Positions 1 through 42,943 are shown, numbered from the stretch's first letter. The stretch is 43,297 nt of DNA from Spirochaetes bacterium GWB1_36_13 (GCA_001829155.1 MIAO01000044.1:1-43297); one strand, 5' to 3'. Notes: generated by a model not told the origin, from the sequence alone. Made by a program: numbers and translations.

Positions 1-54
1 TAAGAGAGTGGATTGAGGGGATGAGTTCAAAACTCTTTGAATCTTTTTTAAAAA

Positions 55-576
55 ATGCTATCTTTAATAGAAAGGGGAAACAAAAATAAATGTACATTAA
101 TCCGCTTTCTGACATTGTTTTTAAGCGAAAACTTCCAGATTCACTTTATTGAAGTGAAGAAGTATCAAAACAATCTCAATAAACTCAAGAAAACTTTAAA
201 TGACTGGGTCTGTTATTTCTTAAATGAAGGGAAAGATGAGGTAATCATGAAAACAGTTTTAGAACACAATCCGCTACTCAACAAAGTTCATCAGGAATAC
301 AAAAAATTCACTATGAACGATAAAATGAGAGAAATTTATGAATATCAGGAAAAAAAGCGGAAAGATGAAAAATCTTTAATCAACAGTTTTTATAAAAAAG
401 GGGTCAAAGAAGGGATCAATCAAGGAATCAAAGAAGGGGAAATCAAAGGAGAGAAAAAAGGAAAAATCGAAACAGCTCAAAATATGCTGAAAATGAAACT
501 GGATATTCAAACAATCCATCAGGCAACCGGGCTTTCGATTGAAGAAATCCAAAAAATCGTTTCAAAAGACCAATAA
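55..576 (+). pseudogene. Internally deleted copy of an Rpn/YhgA-family PD-(D/E)XK recombination-promoting nuclease/putative transposase. The N-terminal nuclease core is missing; the DUF4351-like C-terminus is retained.
   Basis: The 173-aa ORF matches the first ~15 and last ~160 residues of the full-length paralog at 1727..2641. It lacks the D...E.Q nuclease block. DNA upstream of both copies is near-identical (GATGAGTTCAAAACTCTTTGAATCTTTT...). Confidence 0.6.
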
Positions 577-619
577 TAATCTAAATGAACGGACATTGAG
601 CGGAGCCGAAATGTCTGAG

Positions 620-670
620 ATACTCACCCCTGACCCTTCTCTTTCTCAGTGAAGGGAATTGAGGGGATGA
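620..670. repeat. REP-like palindromic element (CCCTTCTCT-loop-AGAGAAGGG) followed by the conserved tail AATTGAGGGGATGAG.
   Basis: Same architecture and tail at 1..25 (partial), 1436..1503, 1676..1705 (partial), 2690..2745, 3383..3450 and 20163..20222. Confidence 0.6.
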
Positions 671-710
671 GTTCAAAATCGATAAACTTCATCATGAGAA
701 CCAATATCGA

Positions 711-905
711 TTAAAAGATTTCATCGTTTTCAATTTTAAGGAGAAGAATAATCCGGTATTCAAAATTCAAAGAGACCGCCCAGCAATCTCTTAGAACTCC
801 TTTTAATTTATGGAGTTTGAGAGCAGGATCTTTGTAATTTTCAAGTAACCGCTTCAAGACTTTTTTATATTCTTCGAATAAAGACGGTCGTTTTTTAAAA
901 ATTTC
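711..905 (-). pseudogene. Start-less remnant of a RelE/ParE-like toxin (about 64 codons).
   Basis: Minus-strand translation gives KRPSLFEEYKKVLKRLLENYKDPALKLHKLKGVLRDCWAVSLNFEYRIILLLKIENDEIF. This fits the RelE/ParE pattern (..nP...kLkG.l.g.wElRi.gdyRiiY). There is no in-frame ATG, and an in-frame TAA lies at 906..908. It sits downstream and co-directional with the DUF2281-like gene at 1112..1330. Confidence 0.25.
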
Positions 906-927
906 TTAACTCGTTTTATACGCAACT

Positions 928-1090
928 GAATTTAAATTGCAATTTTTTTATAAATCCAATTTGTCATTGTCCGGCTTGACCGGACAATCTATTGAATTGA
1001 TTATCTTTTTCTATAGATTCCCCGGTCAAGCCGTGGAATGACTTGGCTTATACTTCAATTTTTGCAATTTAAAATCATTTCAGTATATAT
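928..1090. mobile_element. MITE-like element. Terminal inverted repeats AATTTAAATTGCAA / TTGCAATTTAAAAT enclose two internal palindromes (ATTGTCCGGcttgaCCGGACAAT and CCCCGGTCAAGCCGTGG).
   Basis: Terminal inverted repeats are read directly at 928..944 and 1063..1080. A second, diverged copy of the same element lies at 23484..23640. No ORF. Confidence 0.45.
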
Positions 1091-1111
1091 AGGTTTGAGT
1101 AAGTATCAGTT

Positions 1112-1330
1112 TTATTTTTCGGATAATAAAGAATTAAAATGCTCATCTAGATCATTTTTATCTCCGATGACAGAAACAAAACCTTGTTTTATTTCTTTTA
1201 GACTTTCTTTGAATCTGGATTGTCTTTTGTTTTTTAATACTAGAAAATCTGTGAAATCAATTATTTCCAAAATCGATTGTTCAGACAAGTTTTTGAGTTT
1301 GCGAATCAATTTTTTCTGGATTAAAGTCAT
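1112..1330 (-). CDS. Small DUF2281-like protein (putative antitoxin).
   Basis: 72 aa, MTLIQKKLIRKLKNLSEQSILEIIDFTDFLVLKNK. This resembles the DUF2281 N-terminus (L.EKLR.LP.E.QQEVLDFVEFL..K). The plus-strand ORF 1038..1349 overlapping it is judged spurious. Confidence 0.35.
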   Translation of the reverse strand: MTLIQKKLIRKLKNLSEQSILEIIDFTDFLVLKNKRQSRFKESLKEIKQGFVSVIGDKNDLDEHFNSLLSEK

Positions 1331-1435
1331 TTACTTCCTCTTTATTTGATTAGTTATATTGAATGATTGTAAATTTAGTTCATTATATAAATAATAACTG
1401 AATTTTAAATCAAAGCCAAGAAAAAATAAAGTAAA

Positions 1436-1503
1436 GTCTTTCGGAACTCACCCCCTGACCCTACCCCCCTTTCTTTCCAAGAGAAGGGAATTGAGGGGAT
1501 GAG
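1436..1503. repeat. REP-like palindromic element with the ATTGAGGGGATGAG tail.
   Basis: CCCCCTTTCTTTCCAAGAGAAGGGAATTGAGGGGATGAG. Same family as 620..670. Confidence 0.55.
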
Positions 1504-1518
1504 CACCCCCCTCCCAGC

Positions 1519-1562
1519 CCTCCTCTCTTAGGAAAAGAGGGGGGAGAAAGAATGATTTTTTT
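1519..1562. repeat. GC-rich hairpin element CCTCTCTTAGGAAAAGAGGGG followed by the conserved AGAATGATTTTTTT.
   Basis: Same hairpin plus AAGAATGATTTT motif at 3313..3352, 6222..6268 and 20085..20133. A variant lies at 16598..16640. Confidence 0.55.
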
Positions 1563-1726
1563 GTTTTTTCTCATTATTTTCTAATTTTTACTTTTAGTTA
1601 ATTTTTGTTTATCTTTTTAAGGGGTCAGTCAACCGAAAACCCCGGGGTCAGAATACCGAATAGTAACACAAAGCAGAAGCGGGGCTGGGTGATGAGTTCA
1701 AAACTCTTTTGAATCTTTTGTAAAAA

Positions 1727-2641
1727 ATGCTATCTTTTATACAAAGAGGAAAATTAAAAATGTACTTTAATCCGCTTTCTGACATTCTTTTTAAATACTT
1801 ACTCGGCAGGGAAGAAACCAAAGACCTGCTTTTGTCTTTTATCAATTCTGTCTTAGAAGACTCCGACCTTGAAACCATGCAGTCTCTTGAAATCAGAAAC
1901 CCTTTCAATCTCAAAGAGTTTAAAGCCGACAAAACCAGTATCTTGGACATCAAGGCAGTGGATAATAAAGGCAAGATTTACAATATCGAGGTGCAGAACA
2001 TCGGCGATGAAGTTTTTGTGAGCCGATCGCTTTACTACTGGGCAAAGCTTTATGCAGGTCAGCTTGAAGAATCTGAAGACTACACCAAACTCCAGCCTGT
2101 CATCTGCATCAATGTCCTAAATTTCGATCTTTTGGAAAAACCTGATCTTCTTCACAGCTGTTTTATGGCTTTTGACAAAAACGACAAAGACATTCTTTTA
2201 AGCGAAAACTTTCAGATTCACTTTATTGAAGTGAAGAAGTATCAAAACAATTTTAACAAACTCAAGAAAACTTTAAATGACTGGGTCTGTTATTTCTTAA
2301 ATGAAGGGAAAGATGAGGTAATCATGAAAACAGTTTTAGAACACAATCCGCTACTCAACAAAGTTCATCGGGAATACAAAAAGTTTACCATGGATGATAA
2401 AATGAGAGAAATTTATGAATATCAGGAAAAAAAACGGAAAGATGAGCAATCTTTAATCAACAGTTTTTATCATAAAGGCATCAAAGAAGGGGAAATTAAA
2501 GGAGAAATCAAAGGAAAGATTGAAGGAAAACTTGAAACGGCGAAAAACTTTTATCGTCTTGGACTTTCTATCGGGCAAATAGCTGAAGGTACAGGGCTTT
2601 CCATTGAAGAAATCCAAAAAATAATTTCAAAAGACCAATAA
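1727..2641 (+). CDS. Rpn/YhgA-family PD-(D/E)XK recombination-promoting nuclease/putative transposase, full length. The probable true start is the ATG at 1760 (MYFNPLSDILFKYL).
   Basis: N-terminal PD-(D/E)XK block (ILDIKAVDNKGKIYNIEVQN) and C-terminal DUF4351-like KGEIKGKIEGKLETAKNF..GLSIEEIQKI. A 306-aa paralog lies at 28632..29552. Confidence 0.75.
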   Translation: MLSFIQRGKLKMYFNPLSDILFKYLLGREETKDLLLSFINSVLEDSDLETMQSLEIRNPFNLKEFKADKTSILDIKAVDNKGKIYNIEVQNIGDEVFVSRSLYYWAKLYAGQLEESEDYTKLQPVICINVLNFDLLEKPDLLHSCFMAFDKNDKDILLSENFQIHFIEVKKYQNNFNKLKKTLNDWVCYFLNEGKDEVIMKTVLEHNPLLNKVHREYKKFTMDDKMREIYEYQEKKRKDEQSLINSFYHKGIKEGEIKGEIKGKIEGKLETAKNFYRLGLSIGQIAEGTGLSIEEIQKIISKDQ

Positions 2642-2689
2642 TAATCTAAAAATTTGAATTGCACGGACATTGAGCAAAGCCGAAATGAG

Positions 2690-2745
2690 GGTGTTGAGAA
2701 CGCGCCCCTTCTCTATCTAAAAGGAAGGAATTGAGGGGATGAGAT
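2690..2745. repeat. REP-like palindromic element with the ATTGAGGGGATGAG tail. It is followed by a C11 homopolymer at 2747..2757.
   Basis: CCCCTTCTCTATCTAAAAGGAAGGAATTGAGGGGATGAG, then CCCCCCCCCCC. Confidence 0.55.
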
Positions 2746-2787
2746 GCCCCCCCCCCCAATCAAGAAATAACCGAATCATCCGATCAT

Positions 2788-3288
2788 CTAATTTCCTCCG
2801 GCAACACAACGGATTTGAAAGGTACCAGTCATATTGCCGTAGTAGACGGCGCCGTTGTTGAAATTGACGATCCACGCGCTGGTTGGATTAGAAACATAGG
2901 GCGAGGACGACCAATAATAGCTTGAAACCGTATTCGGGAAAAGCGCTGTGTCAATTGCGGGATTTGATTTCAAAGGATTCACCAAGGTCAAAAGCTCTTT
3001 GAGAGCGGGAAGCCTCCAGTCGGATCTGCCTCCCAGTGTGAGCCCTTCGCAGTAGGAAAGGGCATCTTTCCAAATTTTCGTCCCCGCAGACCCTGTGCAT
3101 CCGGCATCGTTATTTTGACCATAGCTGCATTTCTGCCAGACCAGTCCTGTCACAGTGTCTTTGACCGTGCCGTTTTCATAATCTAAGTAGGTCCGGACTG
3201 CTGAAAATAACGGATATGAAAGAATCAAAAATAGGAGCAGAAAATAAAACTGCCTGCGAAGAAACGGGTTTTGTTTTTGTGTTTTCAT
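2788..3288 (-). CDS. Exported DUF1566 (Lcl C-terminal domain) protein.
   Basis: N-terminal hydrophobic signal. Motif GLVWQKCSYGQ...C....W..AL.YCEGL.LGG..DWRLP..KEL..L is typical of DUF1566. It is paralogous to the C-terminus of the adjacent 3514..5292 product. Confidence 0.7.
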   Translation of the reverse strand: MKTQKQNPFLRRQFYFLLLFLILSYPLFSAVRTYLDYENGTVKDTVTGLVWQKCSYGQNNDAGCTGSAGTKIWKDALSYCEGLTLGGRSDWRLPALKELLTLVNPLKSNPAIDTALFPNTVSSYYWSSSPYVSNPTSAWIVNFNNGAVYYGNMTGTFQIRCVAGGN

Positions 3289-3304
3289 AAAATCTCCTCA
3301 ACTC

Positions 3305-3450
3305 ACACTAGCCCCTCTCTTTCGAAGAGAGGGGGAAAAGAATGATTTTTTTATTTTTTCTATTTATTTGTGCTTTTTACTTTTTTCTTCCTCCCCTGAT
3401 CTTCCTAAGACTTGTGCTGAACAAAGTCGAAGCAGAAGGGGTCGGGGATG
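3305..3450. repeat. About 145-bp composite intergenic repeat: hairpin CCCCTCTCTT..AGAGAGGGG, then AAGAATGATTTTT, then a T-rich stretch, then CCTAAGACTTGTGCTGARCAAAGTCGAAGYAGAAGGGG..GGGGATGA.
   Basis: A near-identical second copy at 20078..20222 sits in the same position, directly upstream of a surface-lipoprotein gene. Confidence 0.6.
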
Positions 3451-3513
3451 AAATCCTGCTCAATACTCGTATCTCATTATTGAGTCAATAAAATAACCAA
3501 ATCATCAAATCTT

Positions 3514-5292
3514 CTACAATCCTCCGGCAACACAACGGACTTGATAAATATACGTCATATTGGCGCTGCTAGCGTTGCCGCCGGTGAAATAGACGACCCA
3601 CGCGTTGCCCGTAGCAAGCACATAGGGCGAGGACGACCAATACTGTCCTGAAACCGTAGCCGGAAAAACCGCTGTATCAACTGCGGGGTTATTGACTCCC
3701 TGTTTCGTAATCGTAATAAGCTCTTCATAAGACGGCAGTCTCCAGTCCTCTCTTCCTCCGAGAGAAAGCCCATCGCAATAACTGACGGCATTGGCATGGG
3801 TATAAGTCAAAGCTGTCCCTGTGCATTCGGCATCACTATTCTGCCCTGCCGAGCACCTCTGCCAAACTAAGCCCGTCACGATGTCGTTGACAGTTTCATT
3901 CCCGTTTGTGGTCCAGCTGGGGGCATTGGGGGTATTGGGATAGTTTGCGTCCTGACCATAATACCATTCTGTGCTACTTGGACAGGGGATTGAGGTCGAT
4001 CCCCCGTTGCTACAGCTCGTTATGCCGGTATCCGAGACTTTATAAGATTTTGCACTGCTGATATAAAAGCCTGTTTTGGAATAAACGCTCTTGTTGCCTG
4101 CTTGATCTTTCACCACTACAGTGAAATAATACTTGATTTGTGCAGTAAGACCTGAGACGGCTTTTGAGCTGATATTGGATTCATAGCCGGTGCAGGTTTT
4201 GGTTTCTGCAGTGGTGGCATCATTCGTAAAATCTGCATTGGCATAGCAAAGCTGATACTGGAGACTGGCGGCAGTGCTGAGATTATCGCTTCCCGCTGTC
4301 CAAACGGCTGTAAAACTACTTGAAGCAGAAGCAGATAAATCTAAAAGAGGCGTTCCGACTGTGGGGACTGTACTGTCCACTGTCAGGGTTGCAGTTGATC
4401 CGCCTGATACATTTCCCGCCTGATCCACCACAAAGAGTTTATAATTTCCCTGGGTCGTAGGGGCAGTGATACTGGTCGCCGTGCCGAGAGCTTTTGTCAT
4501 TGTAGCCCCTTCGGTGAACACGGTTGTCCCGCTTGGGGCAAACCAGACCGTGTTATTTGCATCCCCGGAGCTGACTATTGTAATCACACTTCCCCCATTC
4601 TGTATTACAATCGAGTTTGGAAAAACTGTGTCCTGATTTGCTGGGGCGGTATTGTCCACTGTCAGAGTGGCACTTGATTCACTTGATACATTTCCCGCCT
4701 GATCCACCACAAAGAGTTTATAATTTCCCCCTGTTGCAGGGGCATTGATACTGGTTGCCGTGCCGGAAGCTTTTGTCATCGTGACCCCTTCCGTAAACAC
4801 AGTTGTCCCGCTTGGGGCAAACCAGACCGTATTATCCGCATCCCCGGAGCTGACTATTGTTACCGCACTTCCCCCATTCTGTATTACAATCGAGTTTGCA
4901 AAAACCGTGTCCTGATTTGCAGGGACTGTATTGTCCACTGTCAGGGTTGCTGTTGATTCACTTGATACATTTCCTGATGGATCGACTACAAAAAGTTTAT
5001 AACTTCCCTCTGTTGCAGGGGCATTGATACTGGTTGCCGTGCCGGAAGCTTTCGTCATGGTGCTTCCTTCTGTAAAGACCGTCGTTCCACTCGGTGCAAG
5101 CCAGACCGTATTACCCGCATCCCCGGAGCTCACTATTGCTACCGCACTTCCCCCGCTTTTCACTGTCGAGCCTGCAAAAACCGTGTCCTGATTTGCCGGG
5201 GCTGTCACATCCCCGATTAAGACTATTTCTTCCTGTTTGTTGATACACCCCAATAAAACGATACTGAATAATATAAAAACTATTTTTTTCAT
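3514..5292 (-). CDS. Surface lipoprotein with three ~93-aa near-identical tandem repeats, an FN3-like region and a C-terminal DUF1566 domain.
   Basis: Lipobox LLGC at the N-terminus. Repeat unit PANQDTVF..GGSAV.IVSSGDA.NTVW.APSGTTVFTEG.TMTKA.GTATSI.AP.T.G.YKLFVVD..GNVS occurs three times. C-terminus GLVWQRC...DWRLPSYEEL matches DUF1566. RBS GGAGGAG lies 7 nt upstream. Confidence 0.75.
   Translation of the reverse strand: MKKIVFILFSIVLLGCINKQEEIVLIGDVTAPANQDTVFAGSTVKSGGSAVAIVSSGDAGNTVWLAPSGTTVFTEGSTMTKASGTATSINAPATEGSYKLFVVDPSGNVSSESTATLTVDNTVPANQDTVFANSIVIQNGGSAVTIVSSGDADNTVWFAPSGTTVFTEGVTMTKASGTATSINAPATGGNYKLFVVDQAGNVSSESSATLTVDNTAPANQDTVFPNSIVIQNGGSVITIVSSGDANNTVWFAPSGTTVFTEGATMTKALGTATSITAPTTQGNYKLFVVDQAGNVSGGSTATLTVDSTVPTVGTPLLDLSASASSSFTAVWTAGSDNLSTAASLQYQLCYANADFTNDATTAETKTCTGYESNISSKAVSGLTAQIKYYFTVVVKDQAGNKSVYSKTGFYISSAKSYKVSDTGITSCSNGGSTSIPCPSSTEWYYGQDANYPNTPNAPSWTTNGNETVNDIVTGLVWQRCSAGQNSDAECTGTALTYTHANAVSYCDGLSLGGREDWRLPSYEELITITKQGVNNPAVDTAVFPATVSGQYWSSSPYVLATGNAWVVYFTGGNASSANMTYIYQVRCVAGGL
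4362..5205. repeat. Three tandem in-frame coding repeats (~279 bp each) inside 3514..5292.
   Basis: DNA-level near-identity between blocks (e.g. CCACAAAGAGTTTATAATTTCCC recurs). The protein repeats are >85% identical. Confidence 0.6.
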
Positions 5293-6221: not shown

Positions 6222-6268
6222 AGTACACCCCCTCTCTTAGTAAGAGAGGGGGAAAAAAGAATGATTTT
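6222..6268. repeat. GC-rich hairpin element CCCCCTCTCTTAGTAAGAGAGGGGG followed by AAAAAAGAATGATTTTTTGG.
   Basis: Family member; see 1519..1562. Confidence 0.55.
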
Positions 6269-6315
6269 TTGGTTCTTCCTCATCTTCCCTTCATCTCATT
6301 CTCCCCATCCTTCTT

Positions 6316-16597: not shown

Positions 16598-16640
16598 ACC
16601 CGCTTTTCCCCTTTCTTTCAAAGAGAGGGGAAAGCAAGAA
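16598..16640. repeat. Variant hairpin element TTTTCCCCTTTCTTTCAAAGAGAGGGGAAAG, about 100 nt upstream of the alaS start.
   Basis: Related to the 1519..1562 family but without the AGAATGATTTT tail. Confidence 0.4.
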
Positions 16641-16651
16641 AAAAGTTTATT

Positions 16652-19600
16652 TTATTGTTTGTTTCCGCTGCTGTCATATTGAATCAGAAATCCGCTTCGC
16701 CCCATGTTTGCAAAACTGTCAAATCCTTTATCAGTATTATGACCTACAATCAGGATGTTTCCGCTTCCATCCACGGCAACGCCGTAACCCTGCATATTCA
16801 TATCCCAATAACCCGGCTGACCGTAGCAAAGGACTTTAGTCCACTGGCGGGTTCCCGTGCTGTTAAATTTTGATACAAAGAGACCGGAATTACTGCCTGG
16901 AGCGCTGACACCGTCAATCCAGATTGTAGTATCGCCACTCCCAATTGCCCCTCCTGTGATATAAATATTACCGCTGGTATCCAGAGCAAGCCCCCTCGCT
17001 TGATTAAAATCGGTTTGAACCACTCCGCTGTCATTGACTCCGGGAATAAGTTTGGTAAACAATCTGGTTCCGCTTGAATCGTATTTCATGAGATAAGTGT
17101 TATATTGATTTGCGGTAGGTGTCAATCCGTCAAGCGTACTCTGGGTAAAGCCTGCAATAATAACATTACCGCTTCCATCCACTGTCATATCCGCATATCC
17201 CAAAGATCCTTCAGCATTTGAATAGAGAACTGCCCACTGTTTTGCAAAGGATGAATCCAGTTTGACAATAAACTGATCTGTGCTTGACTGAGTATTTGTT
17301 AGAGGCACGCCGTATAAGCCTCCATAAGTAAATCCTGTAATATAAATATTGTTGGAAGAATCAATCCCGATACCTAGAACCGATACTCCTTTGGCAACAC
17401 CATCCGCTGCCTTGACAAAAACCGACTGTTTAACCCCGCTGGAATTAAATTTTGCCACCAGAATATGCCCTTGTCCACTTGACAAGGTCTGCCCTTCAAA
17501 CTGCCGGCTGGCGTATTGGGAATCTGAAATAACTCCGCCCACAAAAATATTCCCGCTGGTGTCGAGAGCCATAGAATATCCGCGGACAATCACATTGGTA
17601 TCTGTTCCGTCTAAAAGCGTCATCCAATCATTGCCGCCGGTTGATTTATTCAATTTTGCCAAATAAAGGGCATAGGATGCATTAAAAGTCTGTCCGTTAA
17701 AAACATTTGCAGTTGAATTTCTTCGAACAGTTCCGGTAACATAGATCCCATCCGTACCAATGACTATATCGTTAGCTTCAGGTTCGAGCCAATCTCCCCC
17801 GATCATTTTTGTCCATTGCCGGACTCCCAGGCTGTTATACTTGATGACAAAAATATCTGCATAGATTTTAGGTGATGTAAAGGGATCTTCTATAGTATAA
17901 GTGCTTGAATTCAAAACTCCCATCACATACATACTGCCGTCTGTATCCAAAACGATTTTTTGCGGGACCTGATTTGAGATTCTTTTACTGAAAGGTACGA
18001 GCGTGGTCTGGGTTTTTTGGGTATAGGCTTTTATATTTCCTTTTTGATCATGTGCAAAGACTGAAATAGTATAGCTTTGCCCCATGGATAAGCCTGAAAG
18101 AGTATGAGTAGTAAGCCCGTAAATACCCATCTTAGGACAGGTTGTCTGTGATATTGCTGTGTTATAATCATTCGTGAAAGGAGCAGTGTGATAACAGAAA
18201 TCATATGTGATAAGCCCTTGAGTCGTCACATTGTCTGATGCCGCATTCCAGGTGACTGTGAAACCGGATTCGCTCAGATTGCTGATAGAAAGGGTATCGT
18301 CGGAGACAGTCGGAGCTTCAGTGTCATCTAATAAAACCGCCTGAGAGTTTTTCGTATAAATACCCTTATTCCCCCCCGCATCTTTTACAATGACCGTAAA
18401 CGAATAGGTATTGCCGGCTGTGAGTCCTGTCAGAGCTTTACTGGTAATCGCCGTTTCATAGCCTGTGCAGGTTTTTGTTTCGGCAGTAGCCGTGTCATTC
18501 GTAAAATCAGAAGTCGCATAGCAGACTTGATACTGAAGGGCTGAAACAACTGTCGTGTCATCGCTTGCCGCTGTCCAGCTCACTGTAAAGCCTGTTGCAG
18601 ATGCATTTGATACTGTCAAGGAAGGAGTGCCGACCGCAGGGGCTGTCGTATCCGTTCCGGCCGGGTTGGTCTTGGTTGAGTTTTTACTGTAGATCGACTT
18701 GTTATTTTGTTCATCTTTGACCGCAACAGTATAATAATAAGTTGTATCGGCAGTAAGACCAGTAACGGCTTTGGTTGTAATATTGGGGGTATAGCCTGTG
18801 CTTGTCCCGTTGGCTTCCATATCGGCGATAGTCGCAATATTATCACTCGTTGAAGTATAGACCGCATACTCCAGATTGGCAGCCGTTGTCCCGTCATCGC
18901 TTGCCGCTGCCCAGCTCACTGTAAAGCCTGTGGAGGATACACCCGACGGTGTCAAGCTGGGATTTTGAATCGTTGGAGTCTTGTCTGTGGTATTCGTGGT
19001 GGTTGTTTTATTTTTGCTGTAGATTGATTTATTTCCTGAACTGTCTTTTGCCACAACCGTATAAAAATATTCCGTAGAAGGAGCTGCTGCCGGAAGGCTT
19101 ACAGGCGCATAACAGATATCAGGCGTATAATTCACATATACTCCTGTCCCGTTGCTTTCCGCTTCAGTTAAACTGGTAATATTGTCAGTAGTGGAATAAT
19201 AAACCTGATACTGAATATCTGAAGCCGCAGTCCCATTGTCGGTAGCCGGCACCCAGGAAACAGTAAATCCTTGATTATGGACTCCCGATGCTGTGATCGG
19301 TGAGGATGGAATGACCGGCGGAGTCGTTTCACCCGCTGTCGTGGTTTTATTTTTGATGTAAATTGATTTTGCGTTGGCAGAGTCTTTGGCGACCACTGTA
19401 TAATAATACTCGGTGTTGGCATTTAAATTGGTTATTGTTTCGCTTGTGTCTGTCTGATAAGTCCCGGCGGCTGTCCCGTTGGTTTGGGCATCAGCAACAG
19501 TGCTGATATTATCCGCAGCCGAATAATAAACCTGATAGGTGATACCGGAGGATGAACCGGTTGAATCAACGGCAGGGTTCCAGCTGACGGTCAGTCCGTT

Positions 19601-20077: not shown

Positions 20078-20222
20078 TAACTCACCCCCCTGCCCCCCCT
20101 CTCTTAGAAAGAGAGGGGGGAAAGAAAGAATGATTTTACTTTTACTTTTTTTTCTTCTTCTTTATCTCCCCTTCTCTTCCTAAGACTTGTGCTGAGCAAA
20201 GTCGAAGTAGAAGGGGATGAGT
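20078..20222. repeat. Second copy of the ~145-bp composite intergenic repeat.
   Basis: Aligns with 3305..3450 over the hairpin, the AGAATGATTTT motif and CCTAAGACTTGTGCTGAGCAAAGTCGAAGTAGAAGGGGATGAG. Confidence 0.6.
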
Positions 20223-23483: not shown

Positions 23484-23640
23484 TATATACTGAAATGATT
23501 TTAAATTGCAAAAATTTGACCGTTTTTTTTATTCTCTTTGTCATTCCCGCGAAGGCGGGAATCTATTGAAAATAAAATGATTAAATTACAAATTCCGGTC
23601 TTTTACAAGCAAAAACCGGAATGACAATTTTGCATTTTAT
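23484..23640. mobile_element. Second (diverged) copy of the MITE-like element: ATTTTAAATTGCAAAAAT ... TTGTCATTCCCGCGAAGGCGGGAATCTATTGAA ... ATTCCGGTCTTTTACAAGCAAAAACCGGAAT.
   Basis: 23484..23514 is the reverse complement of 1060..1090. Same internal hairpin-plus-CTATTGAA architecture as 928..1090. Confidence 0.45.
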
Positions 23641-24535: not shown

Positions 24536-25873
24536 ATGCTGATTCAAAACTATTTTACAATTATCAGCTATTTTTTTCTCTTCCTTCTTTTTTCTTTTTT
24601 CTTTCTCCGCTACCGGAAACAATTTCCGGGAATGATAGAATGGAGTCTGGCATTTTTCCTTTTTTTTACAGCTATCCTTTGTTTTCTGACTCAAACTTTC
24701 TTGCAAGAACATTTTCTTTTTGTCTTTTTGTCTAATTTATTTTTTTTTACTTCTCAAATCGTTTTCAATATCGGATACCGTAAGTTTACTGATATTCCCT
24801 TTTATAAAAAACACCTATGGATTTATGCAGCGCTCATTCTCTTTTCTCTTTTTTCCGTTCTCGCATTTTCTTTTTGGATCAATTCCCTTGAGATAAGGAT
24901 TCTTTTCTTTAATTTATTGATGATTGGTCTTTTTACTGAAAGCATTTGGATTTTTAAACAAAAATTCAAAAAAAAATACTTTAAAATAACAACGATTTAC
25001 TCTTTACTGATTTTAATTACCTCTATCCGGACAATCCATATCCTCTCTCTGCTTTTCAACAATCAGCTTCTGCAAAAAAATGATGTGATAGAGTTTCTTT
25101 TCTATATCAGCGGACAGATTCTGACTCTTCTGACCGGTTTTTTCCTCATGCTTTTGATTAATGAAAAACTTCAGATTGGATTAAAAGAAACGATACAGAA
25201 AAAAAATCTTGTTTTTTCTATTCTCTCCCATGATCTTTCAGCGCCTCTGCATTCACTCATCCAGTACAACCAGCTGCTGCTTGAAAAAGAAGATTTAAAT
25301 CCCAAACTATGGAAAGAACACTTTGAATTGTATCAAAAAACCTTGAGTAAAGCTGGAGAATTGACAGAAAACCTTTTGAATTGGGGGAAATATGAAGGCG
25401 GACTCGCTCCTCAAAAACAAAAAATCCCTCTTTTTGACTCGGTTGAAGATATTCTCAATCTCTACTCCGAAAAGACGGTTTCAAAAAATATCATCATTGA
25501 AAATAAAATCGACACAATGCTTTTTATTGATTCAGATCCTCTGATTTTCGAGACTATTGTCCGCAACCTGATTTCAAATGCAATTAAATTTACTCCTCAA
25601 AACGGGATGATTAATCTTTCCAGCATTTTGGATCAAGGTTATACGGTTTTATGTATCAGAGATACAGGAATAGGCATGAGTCATGAAATAATCCAAAAAA
25701 TCATGGATATGGAGTTTAAAAGCTTCTCTCTCGGAACAGAAGGAGAAAAAGGAAATGGAATCGGACTGTTTTTTTCCTTTGAACTCTTGAAAAAAATCAA
25801 GGGCAGGTTTGAAATTGAAAGCGCCCCCGGAAAAGGAAGCGCTTTTAAAATCTTTTTTCCTGAATTATTTTGA
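24536..25873 (+). CDS. Membrane-bound sensor histidine kinase.
   Basis: At least six N-terminal TM segments. H-box SILSHDLSAPLHSL, N-box NLISNAIKFT, G1 RDTGIGM, G2 GNGIGL. Confidence 0.8.
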   Translation: MLIQNYFTIISYFFLFLLFSFFFLRYRKQFPGMIEWSLAFFLFFTAILCFLTQTFLQEHFLFVFLSNLFFFTSQIVFNIGYRKFTDIPFYKKHLWIYAALILFSLFSVLAFSFWINSLEIRILFFNLLMIGLFTESIWIFKQKFKKKYFKITTIYSLLILITSIRTIHILSLLFNNQLLQKNDVIEFLFYISGQILTLLTGFFLMLLINEKLQIGLKETIQKKNLVFSILSHDLSAPLHSLIQYNQLLLEKEDLNPKLWKEHFELYQKTLSKAGELTENLLNWGKYEGGLAPQKQKIPLFDSVEDILNLYSEKTVSKNIIIENKIDTMLFIDSDPLIFETIVRNLISNAIKFTPQNGMINLSSILDQGYTVLCIRDTGIGMSHEIIQKIMDMEFKSFSLGTEGEKGNGIGLFFSFELLKKIKGRFEIESAPGKGSAFKIFFPELF

Positions 25874-42789: not shown

Positions 42790-42844
42790 TTTTTATATAA
42801 AGTCTAAAAACTAACATTAAAATAACCTCTATTTTTTTTCTTCG

Positions 42845-42943
42845 TTTTTATTTCTTCAACTCTGCACGACGCAGAGTTTCCTCGTCCGACTTGATTTCAG
42901 GGATGAAATCACGGAGGACTCCCCCTTGTCCTTAAAGACTTAA
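42845..42943. repeat. Inverted copy (copy B) of the ~100-bp element at 29976..30074. Its hairpin plus UUUCC could also act as a weak nadA terminator.
   Basis: The reverse complement of this region matches copy A. The hairpin CTCTGCACGACGCAGAG carries the compensatory variant. Confidence 0.6.

Follow-up and report, generated by a model that had tools for sequence, protein, structure and literature searches.

Rpn (recombination-promoting nuclease) proteins are toxic endonucleases, each neutralized by RpnS, which is translated from within the same gene (PMC10400941). In characterized members, the full-length product, RpnL, is a PD-(D/E)XK DNA endonuclease, and the short RpnS corresponds to its C-terminal domain. 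A shared C-terminal helix varies by 4-amino-acid (aa) repeats that set RpnL-RpnS specificity, and a single repeat difference altered that specificity; rpn arrays form by tandem duplication, with variable ends and with neither inverted terminal repeats nor target duplications; and separate small RpnS genes exist, such as ypaA, and are expressed in E. coli (PMC10400941). RpnL has been speculated to initiate rearrangements (PMC10400941), and PMC5350276 likewise speculates on nuclease-driven rearrangement; E. coli RpnA is reported to show little sequence specificity in vitro, and D63 and Q84 are the residues of it that were mutated (PMC5350276). The origin of duplicated rpn genes, of stand-alone RpnS copies, and of 12-nucleotide (nt) repeat variation was not settled by Zhong et al. 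(PMC10400941). Here, we describe an rpn paralog pair at the left end of a 43,297-nt stretch of Spirochaetes bacterium GWB1_36_13 (GCA_001829155.1, MIAO01000044.1:1-43297), referred to below as the window: an intact gene (unit B) and, upstream of it, a truncated copy (unit A), both flanked by palindromic elements.

The part of the chromosome of this uncultured spirochete in which the pair sits is rich in repeats and structurally unstable. The pair is not a new system; it is an rpn paralog cluster of known type, with one core-deleted copy, set in common palindromic repeats. The history of this PF12784/TIGR01784 pair probably involves a segmental duplication, a deletion at microhomology, gene conversion, and changes in the 12-nt repeats. 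Coordinates are collected in Table 1.

An intact rpn gene and a copy without its nuclease core

In hidden Markov model (HMM) searches, the product of unit B scores 173.9 bits against PF12784 (cut-off, 27.4) and 191.8 bits against TIGR01784 (cut-off, 52.1), and by inspection it carries a catalytic core of PD-(D/E)XK type, D63 and E77-V-Q79 (ILDIKAVDNKGKIYNIEVQ). Unit A matches only the C-terminal part of the profiles (TIGR01784 positions 141 to 273), with 38.6 bits for PF12784 and 74.5 bits for TIGR01784, both above the curated cut-offs; the D...E-x-Q core is missing from it and from the homolog P0003. An earlier annotation made from this DNA alone (the sequence-only reading) had called the genes Rpn/YhgA nucleases. 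Their membership in the Rpn family (TIGR01784/PF12784) stands, and the YhgA family proper, PF04754, is matched by neither unit and within the window only by a third Rpn-family gene.

The same reading held that the upstream copy had lost its nuclease core by a deletion ending in a direct repeat, and an alignment of the two units bears this out. Unit A lacks 407 nt, corresponding to positions 1795-2201 of unit B, as a single gap that spans codons ~12 to 147 and includes the D63/E77/Q79 core. The gap ends within the direct repeat GACATTCTTTT(T)AA, which had been given as 13 bp at 1783 and 2190; its copies start at 1781 and 2189 and agree over 11 nt exactly, or over 13 nt when a 1-nt indel is allowed. 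Microhomology is supported because the gap ends exactly in the repeat, not because of repeat length: 41% of Markov shuffles hold a repeat of at least 11 nt, and the length alone is unremarkable in an A/T-rich gene. The related intact copies L001 and L002 have G, not C, as base seven of the proximal repeat copy, so the crossover in the ancestor of unit A may have used less homology. It may have involved only TTTTAA, inside a 13-of-14 match. The deletion sits within the gene and is unrelated to the palindromes. Because the original frame shifts and stops past the junction, the 173-aa open reading frame (ORF) of unit A begins at an upstream ATG at 55, which has no obvious ribosome-binding site.

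Both units keep a C-terminal region with 12-nt (4-aa) repeats (TRF period 12; 394-450 in A and 2487-2536 in B), and unit A has one dodecamer more than unit B. Met residues of the motif FTMDDKMREIY are conserved ~26 to 30 residues ahead of the repeats, and the close homologs P0002 and P0003 come with a precomputed PF27070 (HTH_Rpn_C) annotation. The truncated copy keeps the putative RpnS-like antitoxin part. PADLOC gave no match for any Rpn copy or neighbor, and a scan of viral contigs gave no close Rpn relatives, hence no sign of a phage-borne unit. A sigma-70 promoter and terminator scan of positions 1-3500 called no promoter in the unit leaders and found the palindromes not to be terminator-like. 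Species-representative genomes scanned with the Rpn protein yielded distant relatives only (at most 42% identity), the lineage of the window not being represented among them.

The closest relatives of the window come from ENA groundwater assemblies and from the metagenome-assembled genome GCA_003527435.1, and they show that the locus varies between strains. Two sibling populations (contigs L132 and L133) carry a truncated gene whose junction is exactly that of unit A and whose interior and C-terminal domain are 99 to 100% identical to those of unit B. Downstream, L132 runs into the palindrome and flank of unit A, and L133 runs into a different element. Neither has an upstream palindrome; its place (L132 1-63 and L133 1-39) is taken by part of the Rpn nuclease core in reverse complement (window 1973-1911), and the join falls at an 11-nt sequence, AAACTCTTTGA, that is common to the leader and the inverted core. 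This inverted junction looks like a template switch or an inversion. The two assemblies may share one project, and their independence is uncertain. The locus is therefore a mosaic of gene conversion and short-homology rearrangements that differs from strain to strain, and the truncated gene of L132 and L133, with its exchanged C-terminal domain, is a gene-conversion mosaic.

A 246-nt in-frame deletion in the copy carried by contigs L001 and L003 is independent of that in unit A, also removes the nuclease core, and sits at short repeats. The core has thus been lost twice independently (in A and in L001/L003) with the C-terminal part left open. In L001 and L003, a PF04754 Rpn gene follows 25 nt after the stop codon with no palindrome between. 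The C terminus of this PF04754 gene is partially duplicated in L001, where a divergent paralog of PF12784 type is present too. The core-deleted copy of L001/L003 and the divergent paralog are each preceded by a composite element, that at L001 9817-9938 having the architecture of window 1506-1697. Contig L002 (88% identity) carries an intact copy whose upstream element (3219-3245) is identical to window 2-25. In that copy and in a second Rpn fragment of L002, a palindrome (4150-4211 and 4750-4823) stands where the last codons would be, so that the repeat encodes both C termini, ...KKLTPSPPLLEREGEK. An Rpn fragment in L002 has 6.2 dodecamer copies.

Table 1. Features of the window discussed in the text (positions counted from its first nucleotide)
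Position	Strand	Feature	Remarks
2-25	+	Palindrome right arm, cut at window start, ending GGATTGAGGGGATGAG	Abuts unit A leader
26-89	+	Unit A 5' leader (TTCAAAACTCTTTGAATC...)	Homologous to unit B leader
55-576	+	Truncated rpn copy, unit A	173-aa ORF with C-terminal helical domain and 12-nt repeats
90-152	+	Remnant of original Rpn start	ATG 90, 11 native codons, frameshift after junction, stop (MYINPLSDIVFKRKLPDSLY*)
111-127	+	Deletion junction GACATTGTTTTTAAGCG	Identical in sibling-strain contigs L132 and L133
591-615	+	Mini-hairpin GGACATT-GAGCGGAGCCGA-AATGTC	3' end of unit A; GAGCRRAGYCGA-loop family
620-671	+	Complete nested palindrome ACTCACCCC..CCCTTCTCT..GAAGGG..GGGGATGAG	E=1.1e-11; fold z=-3.35
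711-857	-	RelE/HigB-like toxin, C-terminal fragment	PF05015 E=0.005, below curated cut-off; start lost
902-1102		Nested inverted-repeat (MITE-like) element	Between antitoxin-like ORF and toxin fragment
1112-1330	-	DUF2281/VapB-like antitoxin ORF, 72 aa	PF10047 E=4.8e-5, TA_VapB E=0.003; below curated cut-offs
1445-1503	+	REP-like element ending ATTGAGGGGATGAG, weakened pairing	E=1.8e-12; fold z=-0.87
1506-1697	+	Composite element: left hairpin CCTCCTCTCTT..AAGAGGGGGG, A/T-rich spacer, right end GGGCTGGGTGATGAG	E=1.7e-18; right end abuts unit B leader
1698-1759	+	Unit B 5' leader	Holds 7-bp palindrome TTCAAAA-CTC-TTTTGAA
1760-2641	+	Intact rpn gene, unit B	293 aa; PF12784 E=5.6e-51, TIGR01784 E=2.1e-56
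1781-1794	+	Proximal direct-repeat copy GACATTCTTTTTAA	In intact unit B
2189-2201	+	Distal direct-repeat copy GACATTCTTTTAA	In intact unit B
2665-2687	+	Degenerate 3' mini-hairpin (GGACATTGAGCAAAGCCGAAATG)	A/B/L133 homology ends here
2701-2743	+	REP-like right half, left outer arm lost	E=1.8e-11; fold z=-0.58
3300-3447	+	Composite element between two Lcl_C lipoprotein genes	No Rpn gene end
6226-6279	+	Left-hairpin-type element	Away from any Rpn gene
16598-16655	+	Element between alaS and surface-protein gene	Profile match
20079-20221	+	Complete composite element, best-folding copy	Fold z=-6.3; away from any Rpn gene
28632-29552	-	Third Rpn-family gene, true YhgA-like type	PF04754 E=8e-43

Unit boundaries and the palindromic element family

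Homology between the units covers ~17-671 (A) and 1688-2743 (B) and runs from the right arm of the upstream palindrome to the mini-hairpin ~45 nt past the stop codon. The sequence-only reading had described tandem units bracketed by direct copies of one palindrome. Palindromic elements do lie at both ends of both copies, and the common 3' end, GGACATTGAGC..AGCCGAAATG followed by a palindrome ending in ATTGAGGGGATGAG, is found as described (591, 604, and 658 in A; 2665, 2678, and 2730 in B). The boundary sequence GATGAG/TTCAAAA occurs at 20, 666, and 1691. The starting motif given for both units holds for unit A; unit B is preceded instead by the end sequence (1683-1697) of the composite element. 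Likewise, the REP-like palindrome said to close each unit is a good nested hairpin behind unit A, and behind unit B it has lost its left arm. The arrangement is not strictly tandem: ~1 kb of DNA unrelated to the Rpn unit (672-1687) separates the copies. Their 3' ends differ as well. This intervening stretch also carries two further palindromic elements. A 9-nt match after the first complete palindrome, TTCAAAATC, was considered as the stub of a third unit and rejected as weak: it amounts to only ~6 nt of extra match, and the reading was dropped because many family members elsewhere end in ...GAGTTC.

Within the intervening stretch, positions 711-1330 (minus strand) form a decayed type II toxin-antitoxin module interrupted by the nested inverted-repeat element, part of which recurs at 23484-23516. 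Mini-hairpins with the GAGCRRAGYCGA loop also occur at 30125-30150 and within composite elements (~3408-3432 and ~20186-20210), with compensatory stem changes (GGACATT..AATGTC versus GGACACC..GGTGTC), and the loop motif is present too in the unrelated metagenome contigs L033, L088, and L101.

Profile searches built from the window copies were used to map the REP/MITE-like element family, which consists of two modules that occur alone or joined via an A/T-rich spacer: a left hairpin, (A)ACTCACCCC..CCCCTCTCTT-loop-AAGAGAGGGG, and a right hairpin, CCCTTCTCT-loop-AGAGAAGGG..GGGGATGAG. Nine sites were found in the window, all intergenic and in one shared orientation. Four of them are away from Rpn gene ends, one beside alaS and the other three between genes for surface proteins. 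Fold z-scores of intact copies range from -3.35 to -6.3, and two of the copies close to Rpn genes have degenerated; among the three palindromes at 620-671, 1445-1503, and 2701-2743 that end in the 14-mer ATTGAGGGGATGAG, only the first folds well. MITEs are defined by terminal inverted repeats together with a target-site duplication; here ACTCACCCC and GGGGATGAGT, the outer arms, form inverted repeats, and by inspection no consistent duplication is seen in the flanks. Element ends read (A)ACTCACCCC and GGGGATGAG(TT) and bear no GTAG or CGTC tag. Among the window ORFs scanned, there was no RAYT, integrase, or other transposase. Rfam matched no family anywhere in the window, so no repeat in it is a described RNA, and a literature search by element sequence strings returned nothing relevant. 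As side observations, element orientation is opposite to that of the minus-strand genes at 2788-23544, and of the sizeable gaps, elements occupy 8 of 9 on the left (20 kb, 1-20300) and 0 of 7 on the right (23 kb, 20300-43297).

The exact 14-mer ATTGAGGGGATGAG occurs four times in the window (12, 658, 1490, and 2730), always on the plus strand and within 1-2743, and no other site is found in the 43 kb with up to two mismatches (expected count, 0.44; 0 of 100 shuffles reach four). Its confinement to the Rpn area reflects copies related by duplication and not independent association. As a family, the elements are not specific to Rpn genes: they lie in 8 of the 16 sizeable intergenic gaps, including that adjoining alaS. 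Gaps flanking the PF12784 copies have one in 4 of 4 cases, gaps flanking the PF04754 gene in 0 of 2, and other gaps in 4 of 10, and the enrichment at Rpn flanks within the window is not significant. The statement that each Rpn-family gene unit is element-bounded therefore fails for the third Rpn gene, which has no element at either end. Nor is there an element at the gene ends in contigs L131 and L134 (~80% identity) or L004 and L005 (~40%).

A pattern of 20 specified bases of the left-hairpin core was searched for in JGI metagenomes and found in at least 120 unrelated contigs of 0.32 to 0.67 GC content, mostly as single copies. Among the 120 contigs listed, 113 also have the outer arm, which is outside the search pattern, and 16 are composite. 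The metagenome form is (G)AACTCACCCC..CCCCTCTCTT-NNN-AAGAGAGGGG..GGGG(T/A)GAGTT(C), both single and composite. None of the 120 listed contigs has an Rpn gene detectable by tblastn or by an HMM from close homologs, which makes the palindromes a widespread repeat and not an Rpn accessory. The element sequence is thus conserved across genomes of very different composition. Some metagenome contigs also hold element arrays, such as L118 with eight copies in 1.5 kb.

Several features of the neighborhood deserve mention. After the Rpn cluster, both the window (2788-3288 and 3514-5292, minus strand) and L001 (12684-16062) have genes for Lcl_C-domain lipoproteins, with ~70% nucleotide identity, so the neighborhood is partly syntenic despite differing Rpn content. 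A ~125-nt repeat with three hairpins (CCCCTTATCCTTAAG..CTTAAGGACAAGGGG, GATTTCA..TGAAATC, and CCCTGCCTCGTGCAGGG) and no Rfam match occurs at 29947-30074 (plus strand), at 42791-42943 (minus strand), and at 11647-11831 in L001. Window and L001 copies are 88 to 91% identical; the repeat has PF04754 Rpn genes nearby and sits downstream of nadA. Unusually for a bacterium, positions 25865-28378 (minus strand) encode an 837-aa major-vault-protein-domain protein (MVP_shoulder E=1.9e-29; Vault_3 E=1.1e-5).

Competing accounts of the locus

We infer the mechanism of duplication from these structures and prefer the following account as the probable one. Duplication of a palindrome-flanked segment would need no dedicated mobility mechanism and would have come about by template switching or by ectopic recombination of the ordinary kind; the paralogs would later have been made mosaic by gene conversion; and replication slippage or microhomology-mediated joining would have removed the toxic core of copy A. 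The remnant would then be a pseudogene or, somewhat less likely, an RpnS-like antitoxin kept as a gene of its own, as with E. coli ypaA/rpnESs. Several observations weigh against this course of events. The palindrome end GGGGATGAG directly precedes each of the four close copies of PF12784 type (A, B, L001/L003, and L002), and the element upstream of them is of two different types; three palindrome variants follow one common 3' end, GCCGAAATG (A/L132, B, and L133); and both L001 elements stand directly upstream of PF12784 genes, one of them a divergent paralog. Pooling the window, L001, and L002, elements lie in 9 of 14 Rpn-flanking gaps versus 4 of 16 others (hand-calculated Fisher p ~0.06), a comparison biased by the choice of loci, which rested on Rpn homology, and by copies that share descent and are not independent. 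In addition, the C-terminal 79 to 83 residues of A or B match no Pfam family at E<=10 in a local library, the stand-alone RpnS domain DUF4351/PF14261 included, and a PDB sequence search with Rpn B gave no meaningful match. A real local association of Rpn genes with palindromes is thus possible but unproven, and a link between the two is not established.

The boundary observations would suit an account in which the rpn unit is a palindrome-delimited cassette that the Rpn nuclease or palindrome recombination duplicates, moves, and rearranges, as a PD-(D/E)XK counterpart of RAYT-REP. One 5' junction (GGGGATGAG then TTCAAAAC) recurs behind two types of upstream element, several microhomology-type rearrangements cluster in these genes, and RpnL initiating such events is a matter of published speculation (PMC10400941 and PMC5350276). 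The wider distribution speaks otherwise: half of the sizeable gaps hold an element, that beside alaS among them, the PF04754 gene and the relatives at 80% and 40% identity do without, and the listed metagenome contigs have elements and no Rpn gene. At the locus itself, 3' ends vary, L132 and L133 have no 5' element, the flanking elements are direct and not inverted, no target duplication is seen, and no palindrome marks the junction of the core deletion; RpnA, moreover, is little sequence-specific in vitro (PMC5350276). We regard such a cassette as improbable. Palindrome-guided mobility or rearrangement by the Rpn nuclease itself, which the sequence-only reading had put forward, is unlikely. 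The specific proposal that the PF12784 Rpn nuclease acts on the nested-palindrome hairpins flanking its own gene, so that cassettes are duplicated, exchanged, and relocated, is highly improbable in our estimate; if true, it would supply a concrete mechanism for rpn arrays and stand-alone RpnS genes. Integron cassettes, with the palindromes as attC-like sites and 0.6- to 1.2-kb units (rpn, the toxin-antitoxin remnant, and the small Lcl_C gene) as cargo, might be suggested by the shared orientation of all elements, by the cassette size of the first four inter-element segments (~0.55 to 1.2 kb), and by their toxin-antitoxin genes, which are typical cassette cargo. We rejected this reading as scarcely credible: the right ends (GAG/TTCAAAA, GAG/CACCCC, GAG/ATGCCC, and GAG/TATTTT) misfit the GTTRRRY core site, the window has no integrase, other copies are 3 to 10 kb apart amid housekeeping and surface-protein genes, and the sequence is conserved, mostly as single copies, across the GC range of the metagenome contigs. 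An insertion sequence or transposon carrying rpn was likewise rejected, the flanking elements being direct, the 3' ends differing (A/B, L001, L002, and L133), and the 5' end differing in L132 and L133.

Any function of the remnant is also something we infer. Instead of a dead pseudogene, the truncated copy may be a gene kept in its own right for an RpnS-like antitoxin or decoy, whose C-terminal allele could be exchanged by gene conversion to match or differ from that of the neighboring full-length toxin, a reading we hold only tentatively. It would fit an ORF that is open through the C-terminal domain in the window and in L132/L133 despite two C-terminal alleles, the allele in L132/L133 that is identical to the intact neighbor type, and the recurrence of core losses that keep the C terminus (A, L001/L003, and the fragment L001 11909-12259). 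Separate rpnSs genes such as ypaA, known and expressed in E. coli, and the change in RpnS-RpnL specificity caused by a single repeat difference point the same way (PMC10400941). Its start weighs against it: ATG 55, besides having no obvious ribosome-binding site, by inspection is probably upstream of the transcript start, and the original start is frameshifted. The L001 copy has an additional frameshift, the C-terminal region has no DUF4351 or other Pfam match, and the open frame could merely reflect a recent deletion together with conversion from an intact donor.

Relation to known rpn loci and palindromic repeats

REP-mediated tandem duplication is known in enterobacteria, and the window is alike in that its duplicated segment, too, ends within dispersed palindromic repeats. 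It differs in that the copies are ~1 kb of unrelated DNA apart and at least 7% diverged, because of which the original join point is not reconstructable. With microhomology deletion of the slipped-strand, RecA-independent kind, unit A shares end points inside an 11- to 13-nt repeat of which one copy is kept, and the L001/L003 deletion and the inverted junction of L132/L133 are also at short repeats; nothing sets the window case apart from this generic process, and involvement of the Rpn nuclease would be speculation.

The elements resemble REP, BIME, and REPIN sequences (PMC2817692, PMC3116915, and PMC3733652) as short, imperfect, intergenic palindromes that are multicopy, single and composite, and consistently oriented. 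One end of a REP is typically tagged with GTAG or CGTC (PMC3733652); the window family has neither, and no RAYT gene accompanies it in the window. REPIN-RAYT systems are described as lineage specific and vertically inherited, whereas the core and arms of the window family are found in contigs of very different GC content, and the neighbor gene here encodes a nuclease of PD-(D/E)XK type in place of a tyrosine (Y1) transposase.

Stand-alone rpnSs genes (E. coli ypaA/rpnESs and rpnCSs; DUF4351/PF14261) are likewise small ORFs from the C-terminal part of a neighboring paralog, and the C-terminal allele of L132/L133 is identical to that of the intact neighbor type. Unit A differs from them in having no PF14261 match and in coming from an internal deletion and not from duplication of a 3' part.

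The Rpn/RpnS systems themselves (Kingston 2017, PMC5350276; Zhong 2023, PMC10400941) are the closest relatives of the locus. Shared features are membership in TIGR01784/PF12784, the D...E-x-Q core, a C-terminal helical domain with variable 12-nt repeats, and paralog clusters with variable unit ends, C-terminal-only partial copies, and no transposon-type ends, the absence of insertion sequence- or transposon-type ends at the window copies agreeing with PMC10400941. The E. coli proteins belong to PF04754 and units A and B to PF12784, the latter known from sequence alone. The partial copy in the window lies ~1.1 kb upstream, not directly downstream, and keeps an N-terminal stub and the leader, and palindromes flank the window copies, whereas PMC10400941 reports no identifiable flanking repeats. 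On the questions left open there, the window and its sibling contigs offer sequence snapshots, within one population, of core loss at an 11- to 13-nt direct repeat with the antitoxin part kept, of another core loss that arose independently, of paralogs exchanging their C-terminal specificity domain by gene conversion, and of differing dodecamer numbers. The picture of Rpn biology is unchanged by this locus, which adds to the described systems a worked, population-level example of how such copies originate.

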